From the IMG/VR virus record IMGVR_UViG_3300046705_000096, positions 1,348-65,347 of that record: a stretch of DNA of 64,000 nucleotides. The stretch is one strand, 5' to 3'. Shown in pieces: positions 5,510 to 60,769 of the stretch (within the stretch, counting starts at the first letter, position 1; every line of letters starts with the position of its first letter). The stretch is from a virus. Taxonomy: Duplodnaviria > Caudoviricetes. The notes beneath the pieces were generated by a model. It was given only the letters and a program-made list of their open reading frames with translations. It searched no databases and was not told the DNA's origin. The position numbers were made by a program, and so were the translations under genes.

Positions 5510-5681
5510 CCTGCCGGCCATCGCCAAAGCTGCTGCCATCGGCGCGTCTCTCGCCCTCGTCACGTGGGCATCCACGTTCGTCGTCGAGATCGACTACGGA
5601 TGGCTGTCGCCGATCGTCATGGGCGTTGCCGTTCCCGGCCTTGCGACGCTGAAGCGTTGGCTCACCGAATACTCCGCATAA
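5478..5681 (+). CDS. small two-TM membrane protein, holin-like
   Basis: 67 aa, two hydrophobic segments, basic C-terminus (LKRWL), GGAGAG RBS. Confidence 0.55.
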   Translation: MSPKYKLTKADLPAIAKAAAIGASLALVTWASTFVVEIDYGWLSPIVMGVAVPGLATLKRWLTEYSA

Positions 5682-5685
5682 CACC

Positions 5686-5785
5686 GCTGCGGCCGATGAC
5701 GCCGCTCCCCGCTACCGCCGCTTCAGAGGACGCTGAGCCGCAATTGCCTGCCGCGTCCCACTCGGTCAGCACCATCGGCCGCAGC
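5686..5785. ncRNA. candidate structured RNA leader (13-bp closing stem)
   Basis: GCTGCGGCCGATG (5686-5698) pairs with CATCGGCCGCAGC (5773-5785); inner GGACGC/GCGTCC stem. Confidence 0.35.
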
Positions 5786-5803
5786 ATCACACAGAGGTTT
5801 GCC

Positions 5804-6946
5804 ATGCTGAGACGCTTTGCCATCGCCGCGACCCTGATCGGGGCCGTCTGCCTTACCAGTTCGTTCGTTTCTCAACCCGATCGGAAAGAGCCGGTAAAGA
5901 GTGAGGAGCCGGTAAAGAGCCAGAAAGAGGAGAAGCCGGCCGAGAAGCCGGCCGAGAAGCCGGCCGAGAAGCGACAGCCCGAGAAGACAATCCTGTTCTT
6001 CACTGCGGGTTGGTGCCAAGCCTGCCAGAGGTTCAAAAACGGCCCGCTCGCACTGCTTCGCAAAGCGGGTTGGACCGAGAAGCACATCCGCGAGGTTTCC
6101 GACGAGGCCACGTTCGACAAGTACGACATTCGCGTCCTGCCGACGTTCATCTTGACCGTGGATGGCAAAGAGATCAGCCGTCGCACCGGGTACATGGACC
6201 AATGGGAAATCGGTGAGTTCCACAAGAGCAAGGGTGAGACCTCGATTGCGAACTGGCGTAGTGCCGTTGTGCAGATCGGCGGTTGCTCCGGCGTCTGCAT
6301 CCACCCGTCCGGTATTTTCCTGACGGTCAAGCATTGCCGAGTCCCCCAGAAAACGACGCTGACGATCGACGGCCAAACCGTGAGCGTCGCCCGCATCTTC
6401 GAGTCCAGAGGTGAGGGTCCGGTTATTCTTGCCGCAGTGGAACCCGGCATGTTCCCGTATCTGAAGCTCGCCAAGCTGTTGCCCAAGGTCAATGATCTCG
6501 TCTACTCACTCGGCTACCCCGCCGGTAGTGGTGAACACCGACGCATCTACACGATCTCCGAAGTCCGATATCTGGGTCAGGACAAAGGCGGGTTTCTGGT
6601 CACAAACCACGTGACCATCCCCGGCAACTCTGGGGGGCCGCTGCTGAACGATCGCGGTGAAGTGATTGGTCTGCTTTCGTCGTCCACGTGGGGCACCATC
6701 GGTAAAACCCCGCCGAAATCCTATTGGGTACCGAGGGGCGAGATCATTGATGCGTTGAAGACCACACGCACCAAATATACGGCCCTGTTGAATCTGAAGA
6801 AAGGGCCGATTCCTTGGGCGCGCACTATCGTGATCGGACTCATCTCGGTCTCGGGCGTTGTCTTGACTGCATTTTTCGGTGCTCCACTCCTCATCATCGT
6901 GCCGCTCACAGCCGTGTTGAAAGTCATCGCGGGGGCAGTTTTGTGA
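5804..6946 (+). CDS. exported thioredoxin-domain plus trypsin-like serine protease with C-terminal TM anchor
   Basis: Signal peptide MLRRFAIAATLIGAVCL; EKPA linker; WCQAC; LTVKH and PGNSGGP; C-terminal hydrophobic stretch; GAGG RBS. Confidence 0.8.
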   Translation: MLRRFAIAATLIGAVCLTSSFVSQPDRKEPVKSEEPVKSQKEEKPAEKPAEKPAEKRQPEKTILFFTAGWCQACQRFKNGPLALLRKAGWTEKHIREVSDEATFDKYDIRVLPTFILTVDGKEISRRTGYMDQWEIGEFHKSKGETSIANWRSAVVQIGGCSGVCIHPSGIFLTVKHCRVPQKTTLTIDGQTVSVARIFESRGEGPVILAAVEPGMFPYLKLAKLLPKVNDLVYSLGYPAGSGEHRRIYTISEVRYLGQDKGGFLVTNHVTIPGNSGGPLLNDRGEVIGLLSSSTWGTIGKTPPKSYWVPRGEIIDALKTTRTKYTALLNLKKGPIPWARTIVIGLISVSGVVLTAFFGAPLLIIVPLTAVLKVIAGAVL

Positions 6947-7757: not shown

Positions 7758-9464
7758 ATGTCCGCCGAATTGCTCGACGATTTTCGAGCCAGCATCATCG
7801 ACGGACTCAAGACCCGAACTCTCACGACCTGCCTTCGATGGGCCAATTATCGCCGGGTAATGGGACACCCTTTTCCCGGCCCGTACACCACGAAGTACCA
7901 CCCGTGGTGTGCCGAGATGCACAATTCAAAGGCACCGTTCAACTATGCCCGTAAGGGCGCGCAGCTTGGCGTCACGGAAGTCGCGATCAACCGAGCGTTC
8001 TACACGCTCGATCAACTGAAGCGAGATGTTCTCTACGTTCTGCCGACTACGTTGAACGCCGGCGACTTTTCGAAGGCACGATTCAATACGGCGTTGGCCG
8101 AGTCGCCCTACCTCAAGGGGCTGTTCACAGACACCAACGCGATCAATCTGAAGCAGGCCGGGTCGAATACCCTCTACATCCGCGGGAGTCGCGGCGACTC
8201 GAACCTGAAGTCGATCCCCGTCAGCGAGCTAATTCTCGACGAAGTCGATGAAATGGCTCAACGACAAATCTGGCTTGCTCTCGAACGTCTGAGCGGTCAG
8301 AAGATCAAGAACGTATTCGGCCTCTCGACGCCGACGATTCCGGAGCGGGGTATCGACCTGCTCTATAAGGACTCGACTCAAGAGACGTTCAACTTCCGAT
8401 GTCCGTCGTGCTCGCGATGGACTGAGCTAGTCTGGCCGGACTGCATTGAAGTCATCGGCGAGTTTATCGGCGACCCTCGCTGCCATGAATCATACCTGAA
8501 GTGCAAGGAATGCAAGAACAAGTTGTCGCATGAGGCGAAGCCGGAGTGGTTGTCAACGGCCAAGTGGGTCGCCAACAACTCCAACGCGAATACCGACGTC
8601 CGCGGCTTCGCGATCAGCCAGTTGTACTCGTTCACGGTCACACCGGGCGAGATCGCGGTAGCGCATTTCCGCGGACTGGGTGACGAGTACGCGAACAAAG
8701 AATTCCACAACAGCAAGCTCGGCCTGCCGTTCATCGGCGACGGTGCCAAAGTCACGGATGAAATGATTGGTCGATCGGTACGTCCCCATACGATGGACGC
8801 CCCACGGCCGAGAGTCGGCGGCGATCGTCTCATTACTCTTGGAGTCGATCAGGGGAAATGGAGTTATTGGACTATTGTTGAGTGGATGATCCAAGGTGAT
8901 CCCGGTTACGACGTAAACTCGGCAGCCCTTGCAAAGGTATTGGCCGCCGGCAAGTTTCTGGAAGACGACTGGGGACGTTTGGACGAGTTGATGCGAGAGT
9001 TTCAGATTCTCGCCTGTGTAATCGACGCCGACCCGCAGATCAATGAAGCGAGGCGTTTCGCAAGGCGTTTTCCCGGCTACGTCTGGTTGTGTCGGTATCG
9101 TCGCGGTCAGACCGGGAAGGAAATGAGTGAACAGGATGGCGACACAGGTGCCCCGTTGGTGACGGTAGATCGCACGTCGTGGATGTCAGCAACGCTCAGT
9201 CGTTTCAAAAGTGACCCTACACGAATCCATTTACCGGCAGACATCAGTGCCGAGTTTCGCGAACACCTGAAGTCTCCGGTCAGAACGTATCAGAAGCCGG
9301 AGTCACCTAAGAACGAAAAGAAACAGAAGGAATCCGAGTCTCCGGTTGCTGTTTACGTTGAAACAGGCCCCGACCATTACGCACATAGTTTGACGTATGC
9401 TGAGATCGCCCTTCCTCTGGCGCAGTCGATCACCACTGGGCAAGACGTTAAGGCGTTCTTATGA
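7758..9464 (+). CDS. terL: terminase large subunit (lambda GpA-like)
   Basis: KGAQLGVTE Walker A-like, LILDEVDEM Walker B, STPT motif, CPSC/CKEC Zn motif, GVDQG nuclease motif. Confidence 0.9.
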   Translation: MSAELLDDFRASIIDGLKTRTLTTCLRWANYRRVMGHPFPGPYTTKYHPWCAEMHNSKAPFNYARKGAQLGVTEVAINRAFYTLDQLKRDVLYVLPTTLNAGDFSKARFNTALAESPYLKGLFTDTNAINLKQAGSNTLYIRGSRGDSNLKSIPVSELILDEVDEMAQRQIWLALERLSGQKIKNVFGLSTPTIPERGIDLLYKDSTQETFNFRCPSCSRWTELVWPDCIEVIGEFIGDPRCHESYLKCKECKNKLSHEAKPEWLSTAKWVANNSNANTDVRGFAISQLYSFTVTPGEIAVAHFRGLGDEYANKEFHNSKLGLPFIGDGAKVTDEMIGRSVRPHTMDAPRPRVGGDRLITLGVDQGKWSYWTIVEWMIQGDPGYDVNSAALAKVLAAGKFLEDDWGRLDELMREFQILACVIDADPQINEARRFARRFPGYVWLCRYRRGQTGKEMSEQDGDTGAPLVTVDRTSWMSATLSRFKSDPTRIHLPADISAEFREHLKSPVRTYQKPESPKNEKKQKESESPVAVYVETGPDHYAHSLTYAEIALPLAQSITTGQDVKAFL

Positions 9465-9868
9465 AAATCCGGCACGTCAAGAATCTCGCAAAGGAATTGC
9501 CCACGCTGCATAAGCTGGATGAGAAACTGTTCAGCGACGTTTGCTTCAAAGAGAACAGTGAATGGTGGGTCGCAGAGGACTATAGGCCAATTGCATTCGC
9601 TGGCCTTCACCTTTATCAGCAGCCAAAAGTCGCGTTTCTTTGTCGAGTCGGCGTATTGCCGAGCCATCGCGGCTTTGGATTGCAGAGACGATTCATCCGA
9701 GTGCGAGAGCAGTATGCCGTTCGCCGAGGTTATGATCGCATCGTGACCTACACTGAACGAAACAATTACGCGAGTGCGAACAACCTCATCCGGTGTGGTT
9801 ATCGACTGTATCACCCCCGGTGTGAATTCGGTCTGAAGGATTCACTGTACTTCGAGAAGCAGTTGTGA
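9461..9868 (+). CDS. GNAT-family acetyltransferase
   Basis: VGVLPSHRGFGLQRR acetyl-CoA motif A; NYASANNLIRCGY motif B. Confidence 0.8.
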   Translation: MKIRHVKNLAKELPTLHKLDEKLFSDVCFKENSEWWVAEDYRPIAFAGLHLYQQPKVAFLCRVGVLPSHRGFGLQRRFIRVREQYAVRRGYDRIVTYTERNNYASANNLIRCGYRLYHPRCEFGLKDSLYFEKQL

Positions 9869-13538: not shown

Positions 13539-14330
13539 ATGAGTTTCGACGAACTGTTCTACCTGTCTCTTCCCTTCATCGCTGCGTTTGACGGTGACGA
13601 TCCCCCGGCCGACGATCCCCCGGCTGACGATCCCCCGGCTGACGATCCCCCGGCAGGTAAATCCTTCACGCAGGATGAGGTCAACAAATTCCTTGCCGAC
13701 GACAGGCGGAAACACCAAACCAAACTCAAGCAGGTAGAAACGCGTCTGCAAGAGACGCTAAAGAACAAGGGGCTGTCTGAAGAGGAGCGGGCAAACCTCG
13801 AAGAGAGTCTTGAGGACATGCGGAAGCAGATCAGGACCAAGGACGAGCAAGCCACGCACGAGAAGAAGAAGCTGGAAACGAAGTACACAAAGGAGCTTGA
13901 AGAACAAAAGGAAGCCGCAAAGACGTGGGAGTCGAGATACCGCAACTCGATGATTGAGCGATCTTTGCAGGACGCGGCGGTTTCCGGGGACGCATTCAGC
14001 GCCTCGCAGATCGTTGCCCTTCTCAAACCGACCTCGAAACTCATTGAAGACGAGGGCGGTAAATTCAAACCGGTCGTGGATATTGACACCACGAACGATG
14101 CGGGTGAATCGGTCGTTTTGCAATTATCGCCGGCTGAGGCCGTCGAACACATGAAGAACGACCTTGCACGATTCGGTAACTTGTTCAAGTCGAACGTAGT
14201 GCCGGGTATCGGTTCGAATTCGGCAACCGGCGGCCTTGCTCCGGGTAAGGACGGCAGAATTGATTTGAAGAAGCTGGCGGAAGACCCCGTTGCCTATCGT
14301 GAGGCGCGGAAGAAAGGTCTTCAAGTCTAA
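13539..14330 (+). CDS. capsid scaffolding protein
   Basis: FTQDEVNKFL plus long coiled coil, directly before the capsid gene; (DDPPA)4 from a 15-bp repeat at 13596-13654. Confidence 0.75.
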   Translation: MSFDELFYLSLPFIAAFDGDDPPADDPPADDPPADDPPAGKSFTQDEVNKFLADDRRKHQTKLKQVETRLQETLKNKGLSEEERANLEESLEDMRKQIRTKDEQATHEKKKLETKYTKELEEQKEAAKTWESRYRNSMIERSLQDAAVSGDAFSASQIVALLKPTSKLIEDEGGKFKPVVDIDTTNDAGESVVLQLSPAEAVEHMKNDLARFGNLFKSNVVPGIGSNSATGGLAPGKDGRIDLKKLAEDPVAYREARKKGLQV

Positions 14331-14373
14331 GACCAGCTTGCTCGGCCTCTGGTAACTAACAAACAAAGGGTTG

Positions 14374-15789
14374 ATGATGAAGAATCTGTACTTGTCCCAT
14401 GCCATGATCGCTTCGTTCGCCAGTCTGACGGACGGGAACAACGACGCGTTCATTCCGGATGTTTGGGCACAGGAAAGCCTGATGATTCTGGAAGAAAATA
14501 TGGTCATGGCGAACCTTGTCCATCGTTCCTTCGAAGCTGAGATTTCCGAGTTCGGAGATGTCGTGAAGACCCGCCGGCCGGATGACTTCAAGGTTCGCCG
14601 GAAGACCGATGCCACGACCTACAAGCGGCAGGACGCGAAGTCCACGAACGTGAACGTCCCGCTCGACCAGTGGTTCGAGTCTTCGTTCACGATCAAGGAC
14701 GCCGAACTGTCGAAGAGCTTCACCGATCTGGTGCAGGTCTATCTGCTGCCGGCGGCTCAGAACCTCGCTCGCGGCGTCGATCGCGCCCTTGTCGGCCACG
14801 TTCACAAGTACCTTGCGAACCGTGCCGGCCGTCTGAACAATCTCGACAAGACGAACGCCAGTGATTTCGTGCTTGACGCCCGCGAGCAGTTGAACATCAA
14901 CAAATGCCCGGATGACACGCGGTATCTGGTCTTGTCGCCGCGGTCGGAAACCCCGATGCACAAGACGACCCTGTTCGTCAGCGCGGAACAGCGTGGCGAC
15001 GGTGGGTCGGCGTTGGAGAACGCGCGTCTGGGACGCATTCACGGCTTCGACAGCTTCCTCGCGCAGAACGTCCCGTCGATTTCCAGCCCGTCTGATGTCG
15101 CGACTGGGACGGTGACGGACGCGCAGCCGGCAGGAGAGGCGGGTTCGCAGACGGTAGTCATCACTGGCTACGAAGCGGTCATTGGCGAGTACGCGACGGT
15201 TGCCGGAAACGATCAGCCGACCCACATCACCGCGGTGACGGCCGGTGCGGGCGACACGACCGCTGTCACGATGGACGAGGCGAACAAGTTTTCCACGCTC
15301 GCCGCCGCAGTCATCACCGTCTACAAATCGTATGACGTGAAGGGCGCGTTTGCTGCTGGTTACTCTGAAGGTGTCGTGATCGACGGTTGGACTGTCGCTC
15401 CGAAGGTCGGGCAGTTGATCGCGTTTGGCACCGGTGCCAGCCGCCGTGTCTACACGATCATCGAAGAGGAAAACGACGGGACCGACTCCACGATCTACCT
15501 CGATCGACCGCTGGAACTGGCGTTGGCCAACGACGATCTGGCCTTCCCCGGCCCGACCGGCTCGTTCAACCTCGCGTTCCATCGGAATTCGCTGGCACTG
15601 GTTAGCCGGCCGCTTGCCGTGCCGAACAACGCACTCGGTGTGATGTCCAGCGTTGCCAACTTCAACGGCCTGTCGATGCGAGTGTCGTTCCAGTACGACA
15701 TCGATCAGGGCGGGATCAAGGTCAACATGGACATGTTGGCCGGGATCGCCGTGCTGGACGATCGCTGCGGCGTGATGCTGCTCGGCTAA
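14374..15789 (+). CDS. major capsid protein (P22 coat-like, with insertion domain)
   Basis: FIPDVWAQESL...GDVVKTRRP and NLAFHRNSLALVSRPL motifs; strong terminator downstream. Confidence 0.85.
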   Translation: MMKNLYLSHAMIASFASLTDGNNDAFIPDVWAQESLMILEENMVMANLVHRSFEAEISEFGDVVKTRRPDDFKVRRKTDATTYKRQDAKSTNVNVPLDQWFESSFTIKDAELSKSFTDLVQVYLLPAAQNLARGVDRALVGHVHKYLANRAGRLNNLDKTNASDFVLDAREQLNINKCPDDTRYLVLSPRSETPMHKTTLFVSAEQRGDGGSALENARLGRIHGFDSFLAQNVPSISSPSDVATGTVTDAQPAGEAGSQTVVITGYEAVIGEYATVAGNDQPTHITAVTAGAGDTTAVTMDEANKFSTLAAAVITVYKSYDVKGAFAAGYSEGVVIDGWTVAPKVGQLIAFGTGASRRVYTIIEEENDGTDSTIYLDRPLELALANDDLAFPGPTGSFNLAFHRNSLALVSRPLAVPNNALGVMSSVANFNGLSMRVSFQYDIDQGGIKVNMDMLAGIAVLDDRCGVMLLG

Positions 15790-15803
15790 TCCCCGATTCC
15801 TTT

Positions 15804-15840
15804 GGCCCGCCCGGTGCCGTAACCGGGCGGGCCGTTCTTT
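15804..15840 (+). terminator. intrinsic terminator after capsid gene
   Basis: 12-bp stem GGCCCGCCCGGT/ACCGGGCGGGCC then GTTCTTT. Confidence 0.75.
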
Positions 15841-15856
15841 GGGAAGGGGTAACCCG

Positions 15857-16096
15857 ATGCACGACCTGTCAAATCTGGTCACGCTTGCGCAACAGTATGG
15901 CCCCGCGATCATCATTCTCTTGTTCTTCTTGTGGAAGGACTGGCGTCGAGAGATTCGCCATTGCATCCGCATCGAGACTCTTGAGGACGAGATTCGAGGG
16001 GCGTTGTTGGGAAAGCTGACCAAGAACACCGAAGTCCTAACTCGCGTGGAAAAGAGACTGGATGACTGGCAACTCCACGTTAACCCGGCTCATTAA
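15857..16096 (+). CDS. single-TM holin-like protein (BhlA/UviB-like layout)
   Basis: QYGPAIIILLFFLW TM followed by a coiled coil with KNTEVL. Confidence 0.5.
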   Translation: MHDLSNLVTLAQQYGPAIIILLFFLWKDWRREIRHCIRIETLEDEIRGALLGKLTKNTEVLTRVEKRLDDWQLHVNPAH

Positions 16097-16553
16097 AAGA
16101 ACCGTCTACGACCTCAAGAGAAGGTACGGAGATCGGGTTGATGTCTACACACTGCTTAGCAGCGAGTCGGACCCACAGAAGGGCACTGTCAGCACCGAAG
16201 TTGACGTCTTCGTAGTTGACCGAGCTATCGTTCTGCCCAGCCGGCTATCCAAAGCTGAGCACCGAACGATCTCAATCATCTCGGCCAATAAAGCAATCCT
16301 TCAGGGGGGTCACTATGAAGCTGATGCAAGAAATTTCCTCATCGACCGCGATGACTTACCCGGTGTGACGCTGACTACCAGTTCTTGGATCGTTTACCAA
16401 GGGCGAAAGTACGCGATCGAAAGTTTGAACGATTACGAATTCGACATGGGGTGGATCGTCACAGCAAGAGCATTGACTGGTGAGAAGCCTCAGCAGGTGT
16501 TTAAGTTGAAAGCTGAGAACTTTGTGGAGTGGGGGTCCGATGCCGAAGCCTAA
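16062..16553 (+). CDS. head-closure (stopper)-like protein
   Basis: SDPQKGTV...WIVYQGRKYAIESL pattern; position after capsid. Confidence 0.6.
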   Translation: MTGNSTLTRLIKRTVYDLKRRYGDRVDVYTLLSSESDPQKGTVSTEVDVFVVDRAIVLPSRLSKAEHRTISIISANKAILQGGHYEADARNFLIDRDDLPGVTLTTSSWIVYQGRKYAIESLNDYEFDMGWIVTARALTGEKPQQVFKLKAENFVEWGSDAEA

Positions 16554-17028
16554 GCGTCGCTCAAAACATAACCCGAAATTGAAGGTGTTGCGATCGCTTG
16601 AAGAGCTTGATAGCAAGGCGTGCCCTTGTTGTCTACAAACCAAACCACTGGCAGAGTTCTATCGAAGCGTCATACATCGAAAAGGTGTACGTTCCTGCTG
16701 CAAGGTTTGCGATAAGGAATGTAGTAAGAAACATCGCAAGACTCGACGAGGTAAGCCCCGAGCCTCGCACTTGAAACGTCGGTACGGAATAACCGAAGCC
16801 GACTACGAACGAATGTTGACACGTCAGGGCAGTGCATGTGCAATATGTCGGTCCAAGAATTCTGGTATAAAGGATTCTGACAAGTTTGCAGTAGACCACG
16901 ACCACAAAACAGGGAGAGTTCGCGGATTACTGTGTACGAATTGCAATAAGGGTCTGGGATGTTTCAAAGACAACCCGAACTTCATGTGGACCACAATAGA
17001 ATATCTGGCAAAGTCAAATGCAAGCTAA
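16540..17028 (+). CDS. endonuclease VII-family homing endonuclease
   Basis: RRYGIT...CAIC...AVDHDHKTGRVRGLLCTNCNKGLG. Confidence 0.9.
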   Translation: MPKPKRRSKHNPKLKVLRSLEELDSKACPCCLQTKPLAEFYRSVIHRKGVRSCCKVCDKECSKKHRKTRRGKPRASHLKRRYGITEADYERMLTRQGSACAICRSKNSGIKDSDKFAVDHDHKTGRVRGLLCTNCNKGLGCFKDNPNFMWTTIEYLAKSNAS

Positions 17029-17524
17029 TCCAAATTGGCCTCGCTGGATTTTCGCTTCTGTCACGTATCACTTAAGTCAGGTGGACGTAGGCGACATCCC
17101 TTTCCTCATTGAGGGGATCGACGAGCGAACGGACTCTTTCCTGTCTGCTCCCGACCGGATAGAAGCCCGAGTAAACGGTCCGTACATCCGACCGCTGCAA
17201 GGCTGCTTCGAAGTATGGGTTGATGTAAACGTCCTATTGACCTCATACATGGGCGACGACACAAAGTCCCGACATGAGTTGCACAGGTTATCCGGACTCT
17301 ACCAAGCAGCATTGACTGCTCCCATCGAAGTCTGGAATTTCGGAAATCAACTGGGGGACTTTGACGAGGGCGACCCCGACTCTCAGATTCTACTTGGGTG
17401 CCTTGTGAATCGGTATTCCAAGGGTGACATGACGAAACTCTTTCACTTTGGTCAGGTTGAAAAAACCGATCGCGTCAAGCAGGCTATCGTAGACGCCCGC
17501 TATCAGATGAACCTTGAGGACTAA
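17018..17524 (+). CDS. putative tail terminator or tail completion protein
   Basis: 168 aa directly before the tail tube gene; positional. Confidence 0.5.
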   Translation: MQANPNWPRWIFASVTYHLSQVDVGDIPFLIEGIDERTDSFLSAPDRIEARVNGPYIRPLQGCFEVWVDVNVLLTSYMGDDTKSRHELHRLSGLYQAALTAPIEVWNFGNQLGDFDEGDPDSQILLGCLVNRYSKGDMTKLFHFGQVEKTDRVKQAIVDARYQMNLED

Positions 17525-17525
17525 C

Positions 17526-18296
17526 ATGAACTGCTACCTTTCTACCCCCTGCATTGCCGCGTTTGCTCGCATCGACCTGCGGAACTCCACGATCTTCATT
17601 CAGGATGGTCTGAGTGGGGTTGCCGAGCTTACTGCATCCCCGCCTGTGGCGACTGACACCGACGCCGACGTTGAGGCGGTCGTTTTGAACTCGACCGTTA
17701 CCGATCAAATTCCCATCGGTGCCCGCTTCACCATTGACGGCGAGACTGATACCGAACAGATTCACACCGTGACGGCGCGCACGCCCGCGAACGGGACAAC
17801 CACGAACATCGAGTTCACACCCGCACTCGGTGCTGGAACTTACGTGGACGGCGGTGTCCTGACGTTCCTTCCTCAGCGAATCGAAATCAAGGTTGGCGAC
17901 GGCAACTTGACGTACACCGAAGCCGATGAATTCGAGTACGAACTCGACCGCGGTAAGCTCGACACCGTTCGCGAAGGTGACGACCAACCCCTGTCAGTCG
18001 ATCTTGAGTTCGTCTACGAGTCGATCACCACCGGCACCGGCGAAACGATTGCTCCGATGGATGCGATCAAACGCAGAGGTAGTGCCACGGAGTGGGTCAG
18101 TTCGGCCGCAGACCTGTGCGAACCGTATGCCGTGGACGTGATTGTCGAACACGTTCCCCCGTGCGGCACGAAAGAGTCCGAGCGAACGACCTTCCCGGAC
18201 TTCCGTTCCGAGAGCCGTGCCCCGGACTTCAGCGAAGCCCAAATCTCGGTCTCCGGGCGATGCAACGTTCGGGTGCCGATCACGGAACGCTTCTAA
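17526..18296 (+). CDS. major tail (tube) protein
   Basis: GAGG RBS; IKVGDGNLTYTE...YELDRG; followed by terminator and chaperone-like gene. Confidence 0.7.
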   Translation: MNCYLSTPCIAAFARIDLRNSTIFIQDGLSGVAELTASPPVATDTDADVEAVVLNSTVTDQIPIGARFTIDGETDTEQIHTVTARTPANGTTTNIEFTPALGAGTYVDGGVLTFLPQRIEIKVGDGNLTYTEADEFEYELDRGKLDTVREGDDQPLSVDLEFVYESITTGTGETIAPMDAIKRRGSATEWVSSAADLCEPYAVDVIVEHVPPCGTKESERTTFPDFRSESRAPDFSEAQISVSGRCNVRVPITERF

Positions 18297-26244: not shown

Positions 26245-26630
26245 TCTTGCAAGCCCCGTATCCCACGCTTCAAACGACAACGATCCTGCCCGACCCGGAG
26301 TTTAGCGACGGGGAAGGTGCGACGGGTGAGGCGATCCCGAGACGCACCATGAACAACGTCGTTCGCGTCTACCGCAAGACCAAGCCCCGTCGCCGGTTGA
26401 CTTGGCAATTCCGACTGACACAACCAAAGGCGATCGAACTTCTTGAATTCGTTCGTGCGTACTTCGGGTCACGGGTAAAGATCACAGACCACAACAACCG
26501 TCAGTGGGTCGGTTTTCTGATGAACAATCCCATTGAGATTCGCAGTGAGCGTTCGGGCAGACCGGACGTCCAAGGCATTCGAGGCGAAACGTACTCAGCG
26601 CAGATTGAGTTTGAGGGGGAAGAGGTTTAG
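26241..26630 (+). CDS. distal tail (Dit-like) protein
   Basis: 129 aa upstream of the tail-tip gene; ends IEFEG like its paralogue. Confidence 0.55.
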   Translation: MILQAPYPTLQTTTILPDPEFSDGEGATGEAIPRRTMNNVVRVYRKTKPRRRLTWQFRLTQPKAIELLEFVRAYFGSRVKITDHNNRQWVGFLMNNPIEIRSERSGRPDVQGIRGETYSAQIEFEGEEV

Positions 26631-27127
26631 ATGTGGGTCCAGCGTTTTCGTAGTTTGATTGCGCTAATCAACGAGAGACTGACCTTGTAGCGTTTGGCCA
26701 ACACACGCTGAAGTGCATCTGATTTACGAATCGCTACTACTTGCGACTCGGACAACTTTGAGCATGCACTTCTCTCACCCTTTAACCTCAACATACATCC
26801 ACGGCCCTTTCGCCACATATCTTGGACGTTCATTTTCTGAGTACCGAGAAACAGATGCCGCGGATTGCAACATAGTCGATTATCACATTTGTGACAGACT
26901 AACTTGTCTCCGGGGTCTTTTCCGTAATGAAGGAAGTAGGCGATTCGATGCGGCCCGAAAGCGCAGTAGTTCAACGACACCACTCCATAACCGTTACTAC
27001 TAGCTGTTGCAGCCCACTCCCAGCAATCGTCCGCCCCACCCTTGAAGACCTTGGACCAGAACCGTTTAATCTGCTTGTCAGTCAATTTCGGAATCGGGGT
27101 GTGTTTTCGCATAGTCGCATGCTCCAA
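26627..27127 (-). CDS. HNH homing endonuclease with C-terminal HTH
   Basis: CWEW...GYG...HRIAY...VCHKCDNRLCCNPRHLFLGT...N; antisense within the tail operon. Confidence 0.9.
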   Translation of the reverse strand: MEHATMRKHTPIPKLTDKQIKRFWSKVFKGGADDCWEWAATASSNGYGVVSLNYCAFGPHRIAYFLHYGKDPGDKLVCHKCDNRLCCNPRHLFLGTQKMNVQDMWRKGRGCMLRLKGERSACSKLSESQVVAIRKSDALQRVLAKRYKVSLSLISAIKLRKRWTHI

Positions 27128-37596: not shown

Positions 37597-38427
37597 CAGA
37601 TCGCCGTCGCAAACATTCGAGACCCAAAAGTTCTGCTGAGAACGGTAGACACCGGGTCGGTCGAGTTTCAGGAACTGATGGACTCGATTCACGATCGGGG
37701 GGTATTGAAACCTTTACTGGTCCGCCCATTTGGAGCTTTCTACGAACTGATCGACGGGATGCACCGCCTGATGGCTGTGCGGATGCTTGATCTTCTCACC
37801 GTCGATGTCAAGGTCATCGACTGCGACGACAACGACGCTCTACTTCTCCAACTGCAAGCAAACGCGATTCAGGTGCCGACGTCTCCGGTCGATTATGCGA
37901 GGCGGCTACGTCACCACATGGACCTCAACCCGACGCTGACGTTGTCGGGCTTAGCACGCGTCCTCAACAAGAGTACGCAGTGGGTCCGACAGATTCTCGG
38001 CCTACTCGGCCTCTCAGAGGATGCCCGTAAAGCCGTCGAGCGGGGCGAGATTTCCCTGCGGTCGGCCTACGAACTGCGAAAGCTGCCGCACCCCGATCAA
38101 GATCGGTGGTTGCCGCGGGCGGTTGTTTGCAGTGCGAAGCAATTCGTCGCCGAGATCGCTCCCGCTGTCCGTGCCTACGTCAACGGCCGGCAGCAGGGGC
38201 GATACGTTCGAACGAGTGGTGAGCCGAAGGCGTACCTTCGGTCTTTGAAAGAAATCCAACACGAATTGGAGAACGAAAATGAAGCGTCTGCTGTAATCAC
38301 CGTTGAGGGAGCAAAGAACTCGTTGGACGGATTCAAAGCAGCCCTCAAATGGGTACTGCACCTTGACAACTTCACTATCAGGAAACGCAATGAGCAAAAC
38401 CGCAACGAAACCGAAAGGGACGGCTGA
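37594..38427 (+). CDS. ParB/RepB/Spo0J-family protein 1
   Basis: ELMDSIHDRGVLKPLLVRP...LIDGMHRL ParB N-domain; HTH LSGLARVLNKSTQWV. Confidence 0.9.
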   Translation: MQIAVANIRDPKVLLRTVDTGSVEFQELMDSIHDRGVLKPLLVRPFGAFYELIDGMHRLMAVRMLDLLTVDVKVIDCDDNDALLLQLQANAIQVPTSPVDYARRLRHHMDLNPTLTLSGLARVLNKSTQWVRQILGLLGLSEDARKAVERGEISLRSAYELRKLPHPDQDRWLPRAVVCSAKQFVAEIAPAVRAYVNGRQQGRYVRTSGEPKAYLRSLKEIQHELENENEASAVITVEGAKNSLDGFKAALKWVLHLDNFTIRKRNEQNRNETERDG

Positions 38428-39097
38428 GCCGGAGACCGGCCTAACCGTCGCATCCTTGACCAACCTGCCTTCGACTGAATTCGCATCCAGCGATTACGAC
38501 GACCTGTCGAAACGCACCGAGTTCCTCGGCCGCGTGCAACTGTACTCGAAGGGCGAGGCTATCGACACCGGCAAGGTCCGTCCGGGTCACTATGGCATCC
38601 CCGAGAGCAAAGAGAAGATCATCGAACTCGGCAACAGCATCGACATCCTCGTCCTTGCTCGCCGACCGAAAGCGATGGACTTGTCCGACATCAAAGACAT
38701 CGTTACGGTCTATGACTCGGGCGATCCCGAGTTCCAGCGGATCAAAGAGACGTCGAGCAAATCGAACTCCGGCTGCATGTACGGCGTGTCGTTTCTGGTC
38801 TGCGAGCGCTCGACGGGTCGCTTCCTCGAACTGTTCTTTGGCGGCAAGTCGAGTCGCCCGGTCGCCGCGGAAGTCTATCCGTACATGCCGGCCGAGGACA
38901 AGGCTCCGCAGCCTTTGACGCTCAAGTCCAAGCTGGTCAAGAACAAAGCCGGCAACACGTGGTTCGTCCCCGTGGTCGTCCCGTGTTCTACGCCGATCGA
39001 CATCGACGCCGCCAAGGCAATCGATGAGATCAACAAATTCATCAACCCGCCGAAGACGGAAGTCGTCGAACAGCCGGCCAACCAGCGGACTCGATAA
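38390..39097 (+). CDS. putative ssDNA-binding or annealing protein
   Basis: beta-rich, KNKAGNTWFVP near the C-terminus, replication context; family uncertain. Confidence 0.45.
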   Translation: MSKTATKPKGTAEPETGLTVASLTNLPSTEFASSDYDDLSKRTEFLGRVQLYSKGEAIDTGKVRPGHYGIPESKEKIIELGNSIDILVLARRPKAMDLSDIKDIVTVYDSGDPEFQRIKETSSKSNSGCMYGVSFLVCERSTGRFLELFFGGKSSRPVAAEVYPYMPAEDKAPQPLTLKSKLVKNKAGNTWFVPVVVPCSTPIDIDAAKAIDEINKFINPPKTEVVEQPANQRTR

Positions 39098-42014: not shown

Positions 42015-42806
42015 ATGAAGAGACGACGAGCATTGGTATTCGCGTTGTGCGCGATGGCGATTGCAACTGCGTTTGTGACCGCCAGAGTGATGTACCCGCC
42101 CAAGACGAAGACGGTGATTGAAGAACTGCATAACGCAAGTGTGGTCATTCGAACCAATGGCTCAACCGGGAGCGGCACGATCTTCAATCGCGGCGGTCGG
42201 TCATTTGTATGGACGGCAGGGCACGTTGTTGACGGTGGGATCGATGGCGTCACTGTGATCCACGGCATCGATAAGTACAAGGCCCGTGTCATCAGATACA
42301 GCAGCATCGGCAACGGCCGTGACCTTGCACTGCTTGAAGTGGACGGCTTCATTGAATGCAAGCCGATCCACTTTCGAAAGTCAGACGTAAAGATTGGGAT
42401 GCTGGTGACGCACATCGGAAGCATCTTCGGAACAGAGAACGAACGCAGCGTCAGTCGGGGAACAGTTGCGTCACCATCCCGGTTTTTTCGAATCGGCCAA
42501 GCTCACAACTGGTTTGACCAGTACGACATCACGGCGTACCCCGGATGTTCTGGCGGCGGACTTTTCAGCGGCGATCAGTACGTCGGAATGCTCACGCTCG
42601 GACGCCGCGGCACTGAGGCAGTCCACTTCTGCGTCCCGTCGAGTGAGATCGTGAAGTGGGCAATCGCTGCCGGCGTCCCGTGGGCTGTCGATTACACGTC
42701 GCCCGTTCCCTCGGAGATCATCCCACTGTTCGAGCGGAGTGACACGACCTTCGGGAAGAGTCGTAACCTTTCGTGCGGATTCAAAACTATGATCGGGAAG
42801 AAATGA
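42015..42806 (+). CDS. exported trypsin-like serine protease
   Basis: Signal or TM N-terminus; TAGH, DLALL and PGCSGG give a full His-Asp-Ser triad. Confidence 0.9.
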   Translation: MKRRRALVFALCAMAIATAFVTARVMYPPKTKTVIEELHNASVVIRTNGSTGSGTIFNRGGRSFVWTAGHVVDGGIDGVTVIHGIDKYKARVIRYSSIGNGRDLALLEVDGFIECKPIHFRKSDVKIGMLVTHIGSIFGTENERSVSRGTVASPSRFFRIGQAHNWFDQYDITAYPGCSGGGLFSGDQYVGMLTLGRRGTEAVHFCVPSSEIVKWAIAAGVPWAVDYTSPVPSEIIPLFERSDTTFGKSRNLSCGFKTMIGKK

Positions 42807-49005: not shown

Positions 49006-49373
49006 AACCCGAAGAGAAGATTCGCAACGACCTTCGGGAGTTCTTGCAGGTCCGCGGCTGGCTGGTCGAGATCATGCACGGGAACATGTACCAGTCCGGA
49101 ATTCCCGACGCATACCTCTTTCGTCGGGACGCCGGGCCGAGGTGGGTCGATTTCAAAACCCCGAATCGCTACTCATTCACACGGGCACAACGTCGTAAGT
49201 GGCCCCAGTGGGAGAGGCACGGCGTGGGAATCTGGGTGCTCACGGCTGCCACTCAAGAGGAATACGACAAGCTGTTCGGCCCGCCCAATTGGCGTGATTA
49301 CTGGAAAGATTCGTGGGGCGTTCTTGACCCGCAAGACGCGATAGATAAGGCAATCGATGAGGCAAGTGAATGA
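49002..49373 (+). CDS. VRR-NUC-like PD-(D/E)xK nuclease
   Basis: EEKI...SGIPD...WVDFK...FTRAQ. Confidence 0.8.
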   Translation: MKPEEKIRNDLREFLQVRGWLVEIMHGNMYQSGIPDAYLFRRDAGPRWVDFKTPNRYSFTRAQRRKWPQWERHGVGIWVLTAATQEEYDKLFGPPNWRDYWKDSWGVLDPQDAIDKAIDEASE

Positions 49374-49890
49374 AGAATGGCGATCTGTTGTCGGATGGGA
49401 AGGGTTATACGAGGTCAGCGACCTTGGACGCGTAAGATCATTGGATCGGATCGTGTCTTATAGAGACGGGCGAGTGCGAAAGTATTCAGGAAAGGTGCTA
49501 TGCCCCGGAACATTGAAACATGGGTACTTGCTTGTCGTGCTGAGTGATGCCGGAAGGAAGGAATCACGAACAGTACATTCCATTGTTGCAGAAGCATTCT
49601 TAGGAACACGTCCACCCGGAAAGCAAATCCGACATGGTCCTGACGGCCCTTCAGTAAACACAGTTAAGAATCTGTGTTATGGAACGGTTTCCGAAAACCA
49701 AATGGACCGCCACAGAGACGGTACAGCGAATATAGGCACACGGAACGGACAATCGAAGCTGACGCCTGATGATATTGTTACGATCAGACAGTCCGACGAA
49801 AATCAACGCGATGCTGCTGCACGTCTGAAAGTGTCTCAATCCTTGATTAGCCGCATTCGATCAGGCGAAGTCTGGAAACACATCAAATGA
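49357..49890 (+). CDS. NUMOD4-HNH homing endonuclease
   Basis: EEWRSVVGWEGLYEVSDLGRVRS; VHSIVAEAFLG...H...N...NL.Y; C-terminal HTH. Confidence 0.9.
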   Translation: MRQVNEEWRSVVGWEGLYEVSDLGRVRSLDRIVSYRDGRVRKYSGKVLCPGTLKHGYLLVVLSDAGRKESRTVHSIVAEAFLGTRPPGKQIRHGPDGPSVNTVKNLCYGTVSENQMDRHRDGTANIGTRNGQSKLTPDDIVTIRQSDENQRDAAARLKVSQSLISRIRSGEVWKHIK

Positions 49891-50477
49891 AACATCTCAA
49901 GAAATACCAACTGTGGGGCTGCATGGCCACGTCGTTCGCGATGGCCTACGACATGACGCTCGACGAGTTCTACCAGAGCGTCGGGCACGACGGCTCGGAG
50001 ATCGTGTACCCCGAACTGCCGGAACCAATGAGACGTCGCGGGGTACACCCCAACGAGTGCGTACTTGTCGGATTGCAGAACGGGTGCGCCGTCACACCCT
50101 TTGAAGTGCATTCGCAGCTTCAAGCCTCACAAGACATCAATGCCCTGTTGGACATCGGGATATCGCGTTTCCACAGAAAGTACGCGCGGAAGACTGTCGA
50201 ACAATCCAAGACGGCATTGAAGAACATCCTACAAAGCACGATCCAAGAAATCTGTACGCCCCTCGATTCGAACTGGCTCGACTTCAAGTATTTCATTTGC
50301 AGACGGCGGGGCGTTCTCGAAGGTTGGGCCGGCAAGTGCAAACACGCTGTCGCCTTTGATCGCGGAACGATCTACGACCCGGACGGCCCGCAATATCCCT
50401 ACGACCGTGCCGAGTGTGAGCGGCGAGGTTTCTTCGGAAATAGACTCTGGATTGTGGATAAAGTCGCGCAGAATTGA
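49887..50477 (+). CDS. C39-like (papain-fold) cysteine peptidase
   Basis: Q..GCMATSFAM (Cys), HAVAF (His), IYDP (Asp). Confidence 0.6.
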   Translation: MKHLKKYQLWGCMATSFAMAYDMTLDEFYQSVGHDGSEIVYPELPEPMRRRGVHPNECVLVGLQNGCAVTPFEVHSQLQASQDINALLDIGISRFHRKYARKTVEQSKTALKNILQSTIQEICTPLDSNWLDFKYFICRRRGVLEGWAGKCKHAVAFDRGTIYDPDGPQYPYDRAECERRGFFGNRLWIVDKVAQN

Positions 50478-54334: not shown

Positions 54335-54516
54335 ACGACCCAGAAACCTACCTCTGGCTTGGCGGCTGGTTGGAACACTCCGGCCGCTGGCATCCGCCGC
54401 ACTGCCTCGCGTCCTTTACCGTGACGGACGCCGTCCACATGGCCAAGGCGGGACCGACGACATCTGGGGAGAATGTTGCCGGCGGGCCGCTTTGCATCTT
54501 TCGATGGAATTGCTGA
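54331..54516 (+). CDS. small hypothetical protein
   Basis: ATGA coupled. Confidence 0.45.
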   Translation: MNDPETYLWLGGWLEHSGRWHPPHCLASFTVTDAVHMAKAGPTTSGENVAGGPLCIFRWNC

Positions 54517-54577
54517 TGGCGGACCACATGCCGGAACTCGCCGACGACCTGAAACGCCTTGTCATGGAGTGCGACGC

Positions 54578-55111
54578 GTGACAGAGATTTGGAAACCCGT
54601 CGTTGGCTACGAGGGTGTCTACGAAGTCAGTGACAAGGGCCGAGTCCGGTCGCTGACACGAAAGGTACGATGCCGCGGCGGAAAGTTCCGACTCAAACGC
54701 GGAAGGGTGATGTCACCTTCAATCGATCAGAAAACAGGTTACCAGTCGGTATGCTTGGCGTTTGAAGGTGCCGTCAAGACATTCAGGGTTCATGTTCTCG
54801 TTGCCGCCGCGTTCATTGGTCCGCGACCGAATGGGCAGGACGTATGTCATGGGCCGTTAGGTAAAGCGATCCACCACGCGAGTAACTTGAGTTACGGCAC
54901 AAGGGAAAAGAACTGTGCCGATCGCCTTAGAGACGGAACGCACTTGGAAGGCGAAGACATCGCCCAAAGCAAGCTGACCGTTGAAGACGTGTTGGATGTT
55001 CGGAGACGCTGCACTCGCAGAGGGATGAAGCGAAAGATGGCAAGGAAGTTGAAGGTGACCGAGTCTTTAGTCAGCATGATCGTTAACCGTAGAATTTGGA
55101 AACACATATGA
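54578..55111 (+). CDS. NUMOD4-HNH homing endonuclease
   Basis: EIWKPVVGYEGVYEVSDKGRVRS; VHVLVAAAFIG...CH...NL.Y; C-terminal HTH. Confidence 0.9.
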   Translation: MTEIWKPVVGYEGVYEVSDKGRVRSLTRKVRCRGGKFRLKRGRVMSPSIDQKTGYQSVCLAFEGAVKTFRVHVLVAAAFIGPRPNGQDVCHGPLGKAIHHASNLSYGTREKNCADRLRDGTHLEGEDIAQSKLTVEDVLDVRRRCTRRGMKRKMARKLKVTESLVSMIVNRRIWKHI

Positions 55112-56040
55112 GACAGCCCGCCTACCTCTCCCACAGCGCATTATGCCTGTGGGAGTCCGACCGACGCGAGTTCTACCTGAAGTACCTCGCTGAACACCGG
55201 CCGCCACGGATTCCGCAGGGGTCGCCCGCAGCGGCCGGGTCGGCGTTTGATGCCTACGTGAAGTATTCGCTGGCGTCGGACCTCGGCCTCGAAGGATCGC
55301 TCGACGAACTGTTCGAGTCGCAGGTCGAGTCGCACAACCGAGACTTCGGCCGTCAGGCTGGGCCGTACATCCTCTACTGGTACAGACAATGTGGCGCTTA
55401 CGACGAGCTTCTCGACCTGCTGCGGCAGTCCACCACCCAGCCTCGATTCGAGTCCACCGTGCGGGACGTGGTTGACGGTATCCCCCTTCTCGGGAAGCCC
55501 GACTTGGACTTCAAAGTGGGTTACCCGGTCGTGTTCGACTGGAAGGTCCGCGGGTTCTGCTCGAAGAACACGACGTCGCCATCGAAAGGCTACCGTCTCT
55601 GCCGAGATGCCAACGGTGGTAAGCCGAGTAAGTCCCACAACCAGTCCCACAAGGACTTCAGACCGAGTGGGCCGCTCAAAGTCAGCCAGACCCCGCTGGA
55701 AGAAACAAACGTGACGTTCGCCGAGCAGTTGACAATGTATGGCTGGCTGCTCGGGCACGGCCAGCCGGTGTTGATGCTCGACGAGATCGTGTGCAAACCG
55801 AACGGGACACCAACTCCGCTACTTCGGGTTGCGAACCATCGGGCACAGGTGTCACTCGAATTCGGGGCGACTCTGTTGGACCGCTACCGAAACATGTGGT
55901 ACGACATCGAGGCTGGTCGCATCTTCGATGAAGACAACGACGCGATCTGCGAAAGCCTTGACAAGGCCGCTAAGTCGTTGGCCGAAGAAGGGGATGATTT
56001 CTTTGCATCTGTTTGCCGAAATGACGGCTACTGGGGGTAA
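55108..56040 (+). CDS. PD-(D/E)xK exonuclease (RecB/Cas4-like)
   Basis: YLSHSAL...GKPDL...VFDWK...QLTMY. Confidence 0.8.
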   Translation: MRQPAYLSHSALCLWESDRREFYLKYLAEHRPPRIPQGSPAAAGSAFDAYVKYSLASDLGLEGSLDELFESQVESHNRDFGRQAGPYILYWYRQCGAYDELLDLLRQSTTQPRFESTVRDVVDGIPLLGKPDLDFKVGYPVVFDWKVRGFCSKNTTSPSKGYRLCRDANGGKPSKSHNQSHKDFRPSGPLKVSQTPLEETNVTFAEQLTMYGWLLGHGQPVLMLDEIVCKPNGTPTPLLRVANHRAQVSLEFGATLLDRYRNMWYDIEAGRIFDEDNDAICESLDKAAKSLAEEGDDFFASVCRNDGYWG

Positions 56041-60040: not shown

Positions 60041-60697
60041 TCAGACAACATGTGACCACGTTTGGCGCTTGTCGATTCGCCCAACTGTAGTCACGTGTAC
60101 GTTGAACTCTCTCGCCAGTTTCACCCGGCTCTCACCGGCCCTCAACCGCAGTCGAATCTCCAAGACCTGCGACACGTCCAGTTTTGCGAACGCAACTCTC
60201 CCTTTCTTCAAGGCGTCCTGCGTGTTATCAGCGTGAGTCCCCAGAAACAGGTGGTCGGGATGGCAGCACTGTCGATTGTCGCAATGGTGAAGCACGCACA
60301 ACCCTTGCGGCACTTCCCCTTTGAAAATCCGGTACATCACGATGTGCATCGCGTAATTCTTGCCGCGATGGTACGTCTTCCCGTACCCAGTCGAACTGAC
60401 CCCGCGGCACCACTCCAAACAACCGGTCTCTGTAAGCCGCGTTCGCTTGAGAATCCATTCGAGGGACATCGCCGGATATCGCGGAAATTCGAAGACCTCT
60501 GGCTCGAAGACCTCTGGCTCGTCGTCAACCCACCGGCGACGTCGAATCGTTGGTTTGGCTTCCGTAATCCCACACCCGCCGCACCCGCTTCGATTCGATC
60601 CCACGTCCCGGACGGGAATACGGATCAATGCCCCGCAGACACACCGGCAGACGGCGTTCTTACCTACGGTTTCGAGTACGGTTAGGTGTTCAGGCAT
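60041..60697 (-). CDS. HNH homing endonuclease with N-terminal Zn module and C-terminal HTH
   Basis: CRCVCG; GCLEW...GYG...VLHHCDNRQCCHPDHLFLGT..DN. Confidence 0.9.
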   Translation of the reverse strand: MPEHLTVLETVGKNAVCRCVCGALIRIPVRDVGSNRSGCGGCGITEAKPTIRRRRWVDDEPEVFEPEVFEFPRYPAMSLEWILKRTRLTETGCLEWCRGVSSTGYGKTYHRGKNYAMHIVMYRIFKGEVPQGLCVLHHCDNRQCCHPDHLFLGTHADNTQDALKKGRVAFAKLDVSQVLEIRLRLRAGESRVKLAREFNVHVTTVGRIDKRQTWSHVV

Positions 60698-60769
60698 GGT
60701 TGACCTCACAACGCCGACTCGCCGGGAAAGGGGGTCGGAATCGGGCCGACCGCTCCGTAGGATTAAACT

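Follow-up and report, generated by a model that had tools for sequence, protein, structure and literature searches.

A short peptide of common sequence, YLS...IA.F, opens three virion proteins encoded in a 64,000-nucleotide stretch of a tailed virus (Caudoviricetes; IMG/VR record IMGVR_UViG_3300046705_000096, positions 1,348 to 65,347): the head scaffolding protein, the major capsid (coat) protein and the tail tube protein. This stretch, hereafter the window, makes up nearly the whole of a 65-kb viral contig. We tentatively propose that the 13-17 residue tag containing this peptide is a phage-private leader, i.e. a propeptide preceding the point at which scaffold, coat and, in this phage, tube would normally start. 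The leader would be removed at, or within one residue of, its terminal aromatic residue, so that mature scaffold, coat and tube would begin near DGD, ASL and ARI, respectively, and the cutting enzyme would be a cytoplasmic C39-like cysteine peptidase of the phage itself and no host protease. The logic would be that of the protease Prp acting on Staphylococcus phage 80alpha, with an unrelated tag, another enzyme fold and no copied host substrate. The steps of this proposal differ in firmness: the tag is almost certainly a real functional module and is probably cleaved at or next to the aromatic residue; given cleavage, the C39-like peptidase is fairly likely to perform it.

The motif occupies positions 13560-13589, 14389-14418 and 17535-17564, where an earlier note on this DNA had placed it, and lies in all three cases within the first 13-17 codons of the gene. 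A six-frame translation of the window contains exactly three matches to YLS...IA.F, all at virion-protein N-termini, and looser versions of the pattern recover the same three places and no others. The count expected from residue frequencies is 0.0012 (Poisson P(>=3) = 3e-10), with no match in 300 shuffles. The shared residues are spelled with differing synonymous codons (in the order scaffold/coat/tube: Leu CTG/TTG/CTT, Ser TCT/TCC/TCT, Ile ATC/ATC/ATT, Ala GCT/GCT/GCC and Phe TTT/TTC/TTT); thus, the tags are alike without sharing codons, which bears out the protein-level constraint claimed in the earlier note.

Relatives of the coat protein number at least 80 among viral contigs, at 45-60% identity, and are also borne by prophages in long contigs and chromosomes of Planctomycetota (Pirellulales, Thermoguttaceae and Planctomycetaceae). 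Conservation in homologues, on which the earlier note made its reading depend, is widespread: nearly all relatives have a matching tag on both scaffold and coat, the count of such Planctomycetota phages and prophages being over 100. Its commonest form is LYLSxPxxAC[YF], and short forms of six to eight residues are also seen. Its last two residues are usually a small one and Tyr/Phe, and the next residue is Ala, Asp, Glu or Gly, with exceptions among the newly arisen endings described below; on the scaffolds of relatives this end is followed by an acidic or Gly-rich stretch. The extension to the tail tube, also part of that note, holds for the window and is a minority trait in the family, being found in about five of the 45 distinct tube proteins (those of the window, L020, L031/L070, L037 and L089). 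A scan of eight whole genomes with a tag profile recovered only coat and scaffold, and the tube of the window scored far down and non-significantly.

Individual family members show peculiarities of their own. A Thermoguttaceae chromosome (G002:C1) carries three prophages of the family, near 1.48 Mb, 2.17-2.20 Mb and 2.69-2.72 Mb (L082, L187-L196), of which two are near-identical, mutually inverted and distinguished by a private tag with the ending EF[VI]CY, present on both coat and scaffold. Five short contigs with a coat gene of the family (L086, L088, L089, L090 and L095) come from bins labelled Anaerolinea, Rhodoferax, Methanomassiliicoccales, 'archaeon' and Methanoregula; since every long integrated copy sits in Planctomycetota, these labels are probably binning errors. 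Directly after the scaffold tag of the window stand four tandem PPADD units, and at this site relatives have low-complexity sequence that is rich in Gly/Ala, rich in Pro or acidic, and that varies widely in length.

Within a genome the tags evolve in concert. When each coat tag is compared with the scaffold tag of its own genome the score is 20.3, as against 11.1 for shuffled partners (31 dereplicated lineages; z 9.1, 0/20000 shuffles), and the difference persists when the two nearly constant last residues are left out (7.1 versus -0.5; z 7.9). Where a new tag ending has arisen, both or all three tagged proteins of that genome have it: VLVCR, with Arg as the last residue, is found on coat, scaffold and tube of L020, and KIWxSVY on coat and tube of L089, while ADAFIVC (in L074), PVLALY and ARFVG[YF] are further genome-specific endings. 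The tags of the window are Cys-free and have IA[AS]F in all three proteins, the only such case seen among the tags compared. A Cys-based lipobox or an N-terminal nucleophile at the usual Cys is thereby ruled out, since the window has Ala/Ser at that position throughout. Gene conversion or other recombination between the 5' ends of the genes was considered as a source of the likeness; at residues common to coat and scaffold tags the codons are identical in 121 of 304 cases, compared with 143 expected from codon usage. As there is no excess of identical codons, recombination between the gene starts is not the cause, and it is selection on the peptide that keeps the tags of one genome alike.

The tag has the character of an addition to otherwise complete proteins. 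Among the 45 distinct tube homologues, 40 begin Met-ARIELRD, with the Met exactly where the tag of the window ends. In Streptomyces phage Keanu the leaderless coat opens with M-ANTFLTPD, which aligns with NDAFIPD of the window, and four distant coats from Planctomycetota prophages have their Met at or just after the junction (e.g. M-ANNLGFYNPQF). The alignment to the Pfam profile of the P22 coat (PF11651) opens only at residue 23 of the coat open reading frame (ORF). Because most tubes and the leaderless coats start at the junction, and because the Pfam profile begins later still, the proteins are complete without the tag. Its removal would give the N-terminus that the relatives obtain by simple loss of Met, and this is the main, if indirect, argument for cleavage; the junction itself is placed to within about one residue, by comparison with relatives.

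It is conceivable that the tag instead stays in place, as an assembly or chaperone tag whose copies pair with each other or bind a common partner and thereby coordinate folding or delay polymerization. Selection for matching tags within a genome is what self-pairing peptides would be expected to show, and in 80alpha the scaffold tag is itself essential and its cleavage dispensable (PMC5744158). Against such a role, most tubes and all the leaderless coats start at the junction, so that the protein works untagged, a pairing tag specific to the head would misdirect a tail protein, and the coupling of tag and peptidase set out below would be left unexplained. We therefore regard a retained tag as unlikely and continue with a cleaved leader.

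The closest precedent for such a leader is Prp, the L27-trimming cysteine protease that also processes the N-termini of the capsid and scaffold proteins of 80alpha; the leader motif of 80alpha is also present on the major tail protein of phage phi13 (PMC5744158). The tags of the window could in principle belong to this Firmicute system, as L27-copying tags cut by a Prp of host or phage: that system marks the same three kinds of protein, with leaders of similar length and a Phe/Tyr end before a small residue. Nevertheless, Prp (PF04327) was found neither in the window contig and five large related viral records nor in seven host genomes (five of them searched together, G002 as part of a sample of 81 Planctomycetota genomes) and the 80 other genomes of that sample; control genomes (Bacillus, Thermotoga and Lactococcus) scored in each search. 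Moreover, L27 of the five hosts starts MAHKKGQGS, at the conserved AHKKG and with no N-terminal extension, and the tag bears no sequence relation to the L27 leader. To the extent that sequences can decide it, the Prp/L27 reading is refuted, and we give it practically no chance. What stands is the earlier note's description of a signal analogous to, yet distinct from, the 80alpha leader: it is like it in place, length and aromatic last residue, and is not derived from it.

The same note had suggested looking among the hosts for proteins with the N-terminal tag and for a Prp-like enzyme; the search of host genomes yielded neither. A 15-column tag profile run against the five host genomes matched only coat and scaffold of prophages (E <= 7e-4), the next matches having E > 0.1, and a strict DNA pattern of the tag likewise hit prophage genes only and no host protein. 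In the hosts searched, then, the tag appears to copy no host protein, unlike the tag of 80alpha.

The leading candidate for the processing enzyme is a small protein that the earlier note had labelled C39-like, a label that agrees with its predicted fold and its conserved Cys-His-Asp set. It has no signal peptide and is predicted to be cytoplasmic. Across an alignment of 14 homologues His153 and Asp164 never vary, and Cys12 is kept in 13, the one exception being a truncated sequence. It has no match in Pfam (including PF03412 and PF13529), among the PHROG profiles or to sequences in the PDB, and its likeness to C39 is one of predicted structure. The AlphaFold model (mean predicted local distance difference test, pLDDT, 83.6) puts the Cys at the start of a helix and most closely resembles the C39 domains of PCAT1, LahT150 and ComA (Foldseek E 6e-5 to 1e-3; ComA 1e-2). 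VIA-align gives Z-scores of 13.3, 13.0 and 12.6 for these three and 12.4 for PeiR, all remaining structures scoring 10.7 or less; a comparison with the ESM Atlas agrees with a C39-like fold. The nearest solved folds are thus those of enzymes that cut N-terminal leaders.

The peptidase gene is also distributed as a partner of the tag might be. It belongs to the core genes: every near-complete relative and prophage has it, and the only sequences without it are fragments that do not include that arm of the genome; wherever it shares a contig with the coat gene the two are about 35-45 kb apart. Of 31 further viral records with the peptidase, 23 have this coat family and the others are fragments. 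G027, rated complete and possessing the peptidase without a coat gene, might seem an exception; it belongs to the same family, and its contig is broken inside the head module. The peptidase was not found in 80 other Planctomycetota genomes, six of them with leaderless or distant coats, or in 50,697 cultured phage records. As a whole the family comprises 1,765 clusters at 50% identity (E <= 0.001) and is unannotated.

Pairwise distances over 36 genomes were compared by partial Mantel tests. With the bodies of coat and scaffold controlled for, tag distance follows peptidase distance with a partial r of 0.52 (0/3000 permutations), while the corresponding values are only 0.16 for the scaffold body and 0.17 for the coat body, even though the tags belong to these two proteins. 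The gene adjoining the peptidase, used as a control, gives 0.04 with the peptidase in the model. Individual pairs illustrate the trend in both directions: between G013 and G014 the difference is 16% in the coat, 58% in the peptidase and 50% in the tags, whereas G017 and G035, whose tags are identical, diverge by 29% in the coat and by 11% in the peptidase. These distance tests are suggestive of co-evolution between tag and peptidase.

Several points weigh against assigning the cleavage to this peptidase. Shared descent and similar rates of evolution can both inflate partial Mantel tests, and the co-occurrence of tag and peptidase may reflect one event in a common ancestor. The gene for the peptidase is part of the replication arm and is separated from the head genes by 35 kb. 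Cleavage by C39 enzymes follows Gly-Gly, whereas the tags here end in Cys/Ala/Ser plus Tyr/Phe; papain-fold enzymes often read the second-last position, and the cut could be one residue further on. Since the pseudomurein endoisopeptidase PeiR is nearly as good a fold match (Z 12.4) and no endolysin was recognized in the window, the protein could also have a lysin role. Finally, the dispensability of cleavage in 80alpha, cited above, counts here too.

Some of these points would suit a host protease other than Prp, for instance a general cytoplasmic enzyme with a preference for aromatic residues, in which case the phage peptidase would serve lysis or counter-defence. Here, the 80alpha precedent is itself a host enzyme (PMC5744158), the peptidase gene stands outside the head module and its fold is nearly tied with that of a cell-wall isopeptidase. 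On the other hand, no host protein carries the tag, and the tags drift widely and in concert among related phages of a single host phylum, which is hard to reconcile with a conserved host specificity; further, tag divergence follows the phage peptidase specifically. We thus consider a host protease quite unlikely and retain the C39-like peptidase as the candidate.

Other proteases of the phage offer little alternative. In line with the earlier note, no HK97-type prohead protease was recognized among about 50 ORFs of the window that were scanned, the small ORFs having been scanned only in part; none of the classical prohead proteases (HK97 gp4, T4 gp21 or ClpP-like) was recognized in the interval between portal and coat or among the core genes from terminase through tape measure. 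Two trypsin-like peptidases are encoded in the window, one fused to a thioredoxin and the other located in the replication arm. That one of them removes the tag is very improbable: their matches to PF13365 are clear (E 3e-13 and 5e-14) and an aromatic last residue would suit a chymotrypsin-type fold, but each bears a signal or membrane anchor at its N-terminus, and relatives do not conserve either of them, the second being present in only two of five large relatives. At the position of the thioredoxin-peptidase fusion, prophage L081 has only a 120-aa (amino-acid) thioredoxin lipoprotein. Two other core genes of unknown function offered no lead to a protease: 38303-39097 has no family match, and 55096-56040 reads, from its sequence, like a PD-(D/E)xK nuclease.

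Table 1. Leaders, tagged genes, peptidases and further genes of the window.
Feature	Position	Strand	Basis or remark
Scaffold leader, Met1-Phe17	13539..13589	+	predicted junction after 13589, then DGD
Scaffolding protein gene, 263 aa	13539..14330	+	phrog_206, phrog_172 (head scaffolding protein)
PPADD units, four in tandem	13590-13650		directly after scaffold tag
Coat leader, 14 aa if the start is ATG 14377	14377..14418	+	predicted junction after 14418
Major capsid protein gene, P22-coat type	14377..15789	+	PF11651 E 1e-33, phrog_283 E 2e-58
Tail tube leader, 13 aa	17526..17564	+	predicted junction after 17564, predicted mature part beginning ARIDLR
Tail tube protein gene, 256 aa	17526..18296	+	AlphaFold/Foldseek match, gene order
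Stand-alone 196-aa papain-fold (C39-like) cysteine peptidase, candidate leader peptidase	49887..50477	+	alignment, AlphaFold model, core gene
Thioredoxin (WCQAC) and trypsin-like peptidase fusion	5564-6946	+	PF13365 E 3e-13; signal peptide, C-terminal membrane anchor
Second trypsin-like peptidase, replication arm	42015-42806	+	PF13365 E 5e-14; N-terminal signal or anchor
GNAT acetyltransferase	9461-9868	+	between terminase and portal genes
Beta-propeller (NHL/SBBP repeat) protein, 326 aa	12008-12988	+	between portal and adaptor
85-aa protein with one hydrophobic segment	15839-16096	+	directly after coat gene; no family match
HNH/NUMOD4 homing endonuclease, free-standing	16522-17028	+	within head-tail module
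HNH/NUMOD4 homing endonuclease, free-standing	26627-27127	-	
HNH/NUMOD4 homing endonuclease, free-standing	49357-49890	+	directly upstream of peptidase gene
HNH/NUMOD4 homing endonuclease, free-standing	54473-55111	+	
HNH/NUMOD4 homing endonuclease, free-standing	60041-60709	-	

The identities and starts of the three tagged proteins (Table 1) are of differing clarity. A scaffold gene is present in 88 of 97 related loci. The coat matches PF11651 with 117 bits against a cut-off of 24, which places it in the P22 coat family. Its ORF has two further in-frame starts, ATG 14374 and TTG 14371; ATG 14377 is the most likely one, and the resulting leader has the length that is commonest among the coats of relatives (14 residues). 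The tube gene begins at ATG 17526, behind a GAGGA ribosome-binding site, rather than at TTG 17514 as in the mechanically generated ORF list. Its product has no match in Pfam or PHROG; in the AlphaFold model (pLDDT 82) the first 10 residues have a mean pLDDT of 49. Foldseek ranks three tail tubes highest, those of phages T1 (E 4e-4), FCWL1 and Mystique, at probabilities of 0.97-1.0 but with low TM-scores of 0.26-0.32. The gene is flanked by connector genes and by chaperone and tape-measure genes, an order that agrees with a tail tube.

Between portal and coat the window encodes a 97-aa ORF, the beta-propeller protein, the adaptor Ad1 and the scaffold. Neither the beta-propeller protein nor the GNAT acetyltransferase has a match in the 97 related loci, and L081 has a different repeat protein at the beta-propeller site. 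The 85-aa protein that follows the coat gene is kept in 68 of the 97 loci and in all seven complete relatives. In several relatives the coat gene is split by a group I intron (RF00028, 52-56 bits; L006:5309-5969, L021:5337-5965, and also L022-L024 and L072). The intron of L006 carries an ORF for an HNH-type endonuclease and is inserted after the tag plus about ten codons, exon 1 ending ...AFIPEL and exon 2 starting WAQEGL. The free-standing homing-endonuclease genes of the HNH/NUMOD4 type are scattered over the window and variable among relatives; that of the head-tail module was read from the sequence only.

Compared with known systems, the tag and its candidate enzyme combine features of three. 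With 80alpha and Prp they share a short N-terminal tag (about 13-17 residues) that marks scaffold, coat and in some cases the major tail protein, an aromatic end before a small or acidic residue, a separate scaffold, the lack of a classical prohead protease and a small cysteine peptidase as the presumed agent. They differ from that system in that the tag is unrelated, that the hosts searched have no Prp, extended L27 or tagged host protein, that the candidate enzyme is phage-encoded and of papain/C39 fold, and that the tags are lineage-specific and appear to co-evolve with the enzyme. With the C39 leader peptidases (the domains of PCAT1, LahT and ComA) the candidate shares the predicted fold (Z 12.6-13.3) and a Cys-His-Asp set with the Cys at a helix start; those enzymes remove short N-terminal leaders, and we presume the same job for the peptidase of the window. 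Unlike them, it has no Pfam C39 match and is a stand-alone, predicted cytoplasmic protein without fusion to an ABC exporter, no ABC-transporter domain being present among the Pfam-scanned ORFs of the window; its presumed substrates are virion proteins ending in the residues given above, in place of exported peptides with Gly-Gly. Like the prohead proteases (HK97 gp4, T4 gp21, lambda C) with, in T4, a capsid targeting sequence, it would be a phage enzyme acting on several structural proteins through a common short motif. The prohead proteases are serine enzymes of herpesvirus-assemblin or ClpP-like fold that have their genes in the head module and work within the prohead, whereas the candidate is a cysteine peptidase whose gene lies far from the head genes and in whose phage a tail protein is tagged as well.

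Literature searches returned no description of this system of tag and peptidase. To our knowledge, Firmicute phages offer the only known case in which a small cysteine protease trims leaders off capsid, scaffold and tail proteins; there, the process relies on L27 and Prp of the host. The present case could represent a new maturation system in tailed phages, in which a stand-alone C39-like peptidase and a private tag co-evolve, each lineage with its own pair, independently of any host substrate, the tag marking scaffold, coat and tube as the most abundant of the self-assembling virion proteins; we put this forward with the same reserve as the proposal as a whole. The same logic, realized in an unrelated phylum with different parts, points to convergent evolution, and also to a general need for abundant self-assembling proteins to be capped until the right moment. 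As the tags are lineage-specific, pairs of enzyme and tag could yield orthogonal protease-and-tag tools. In the phages themselves, these pairs amount to a natural experiment on the co-evolution of one enzyme with several substrates.

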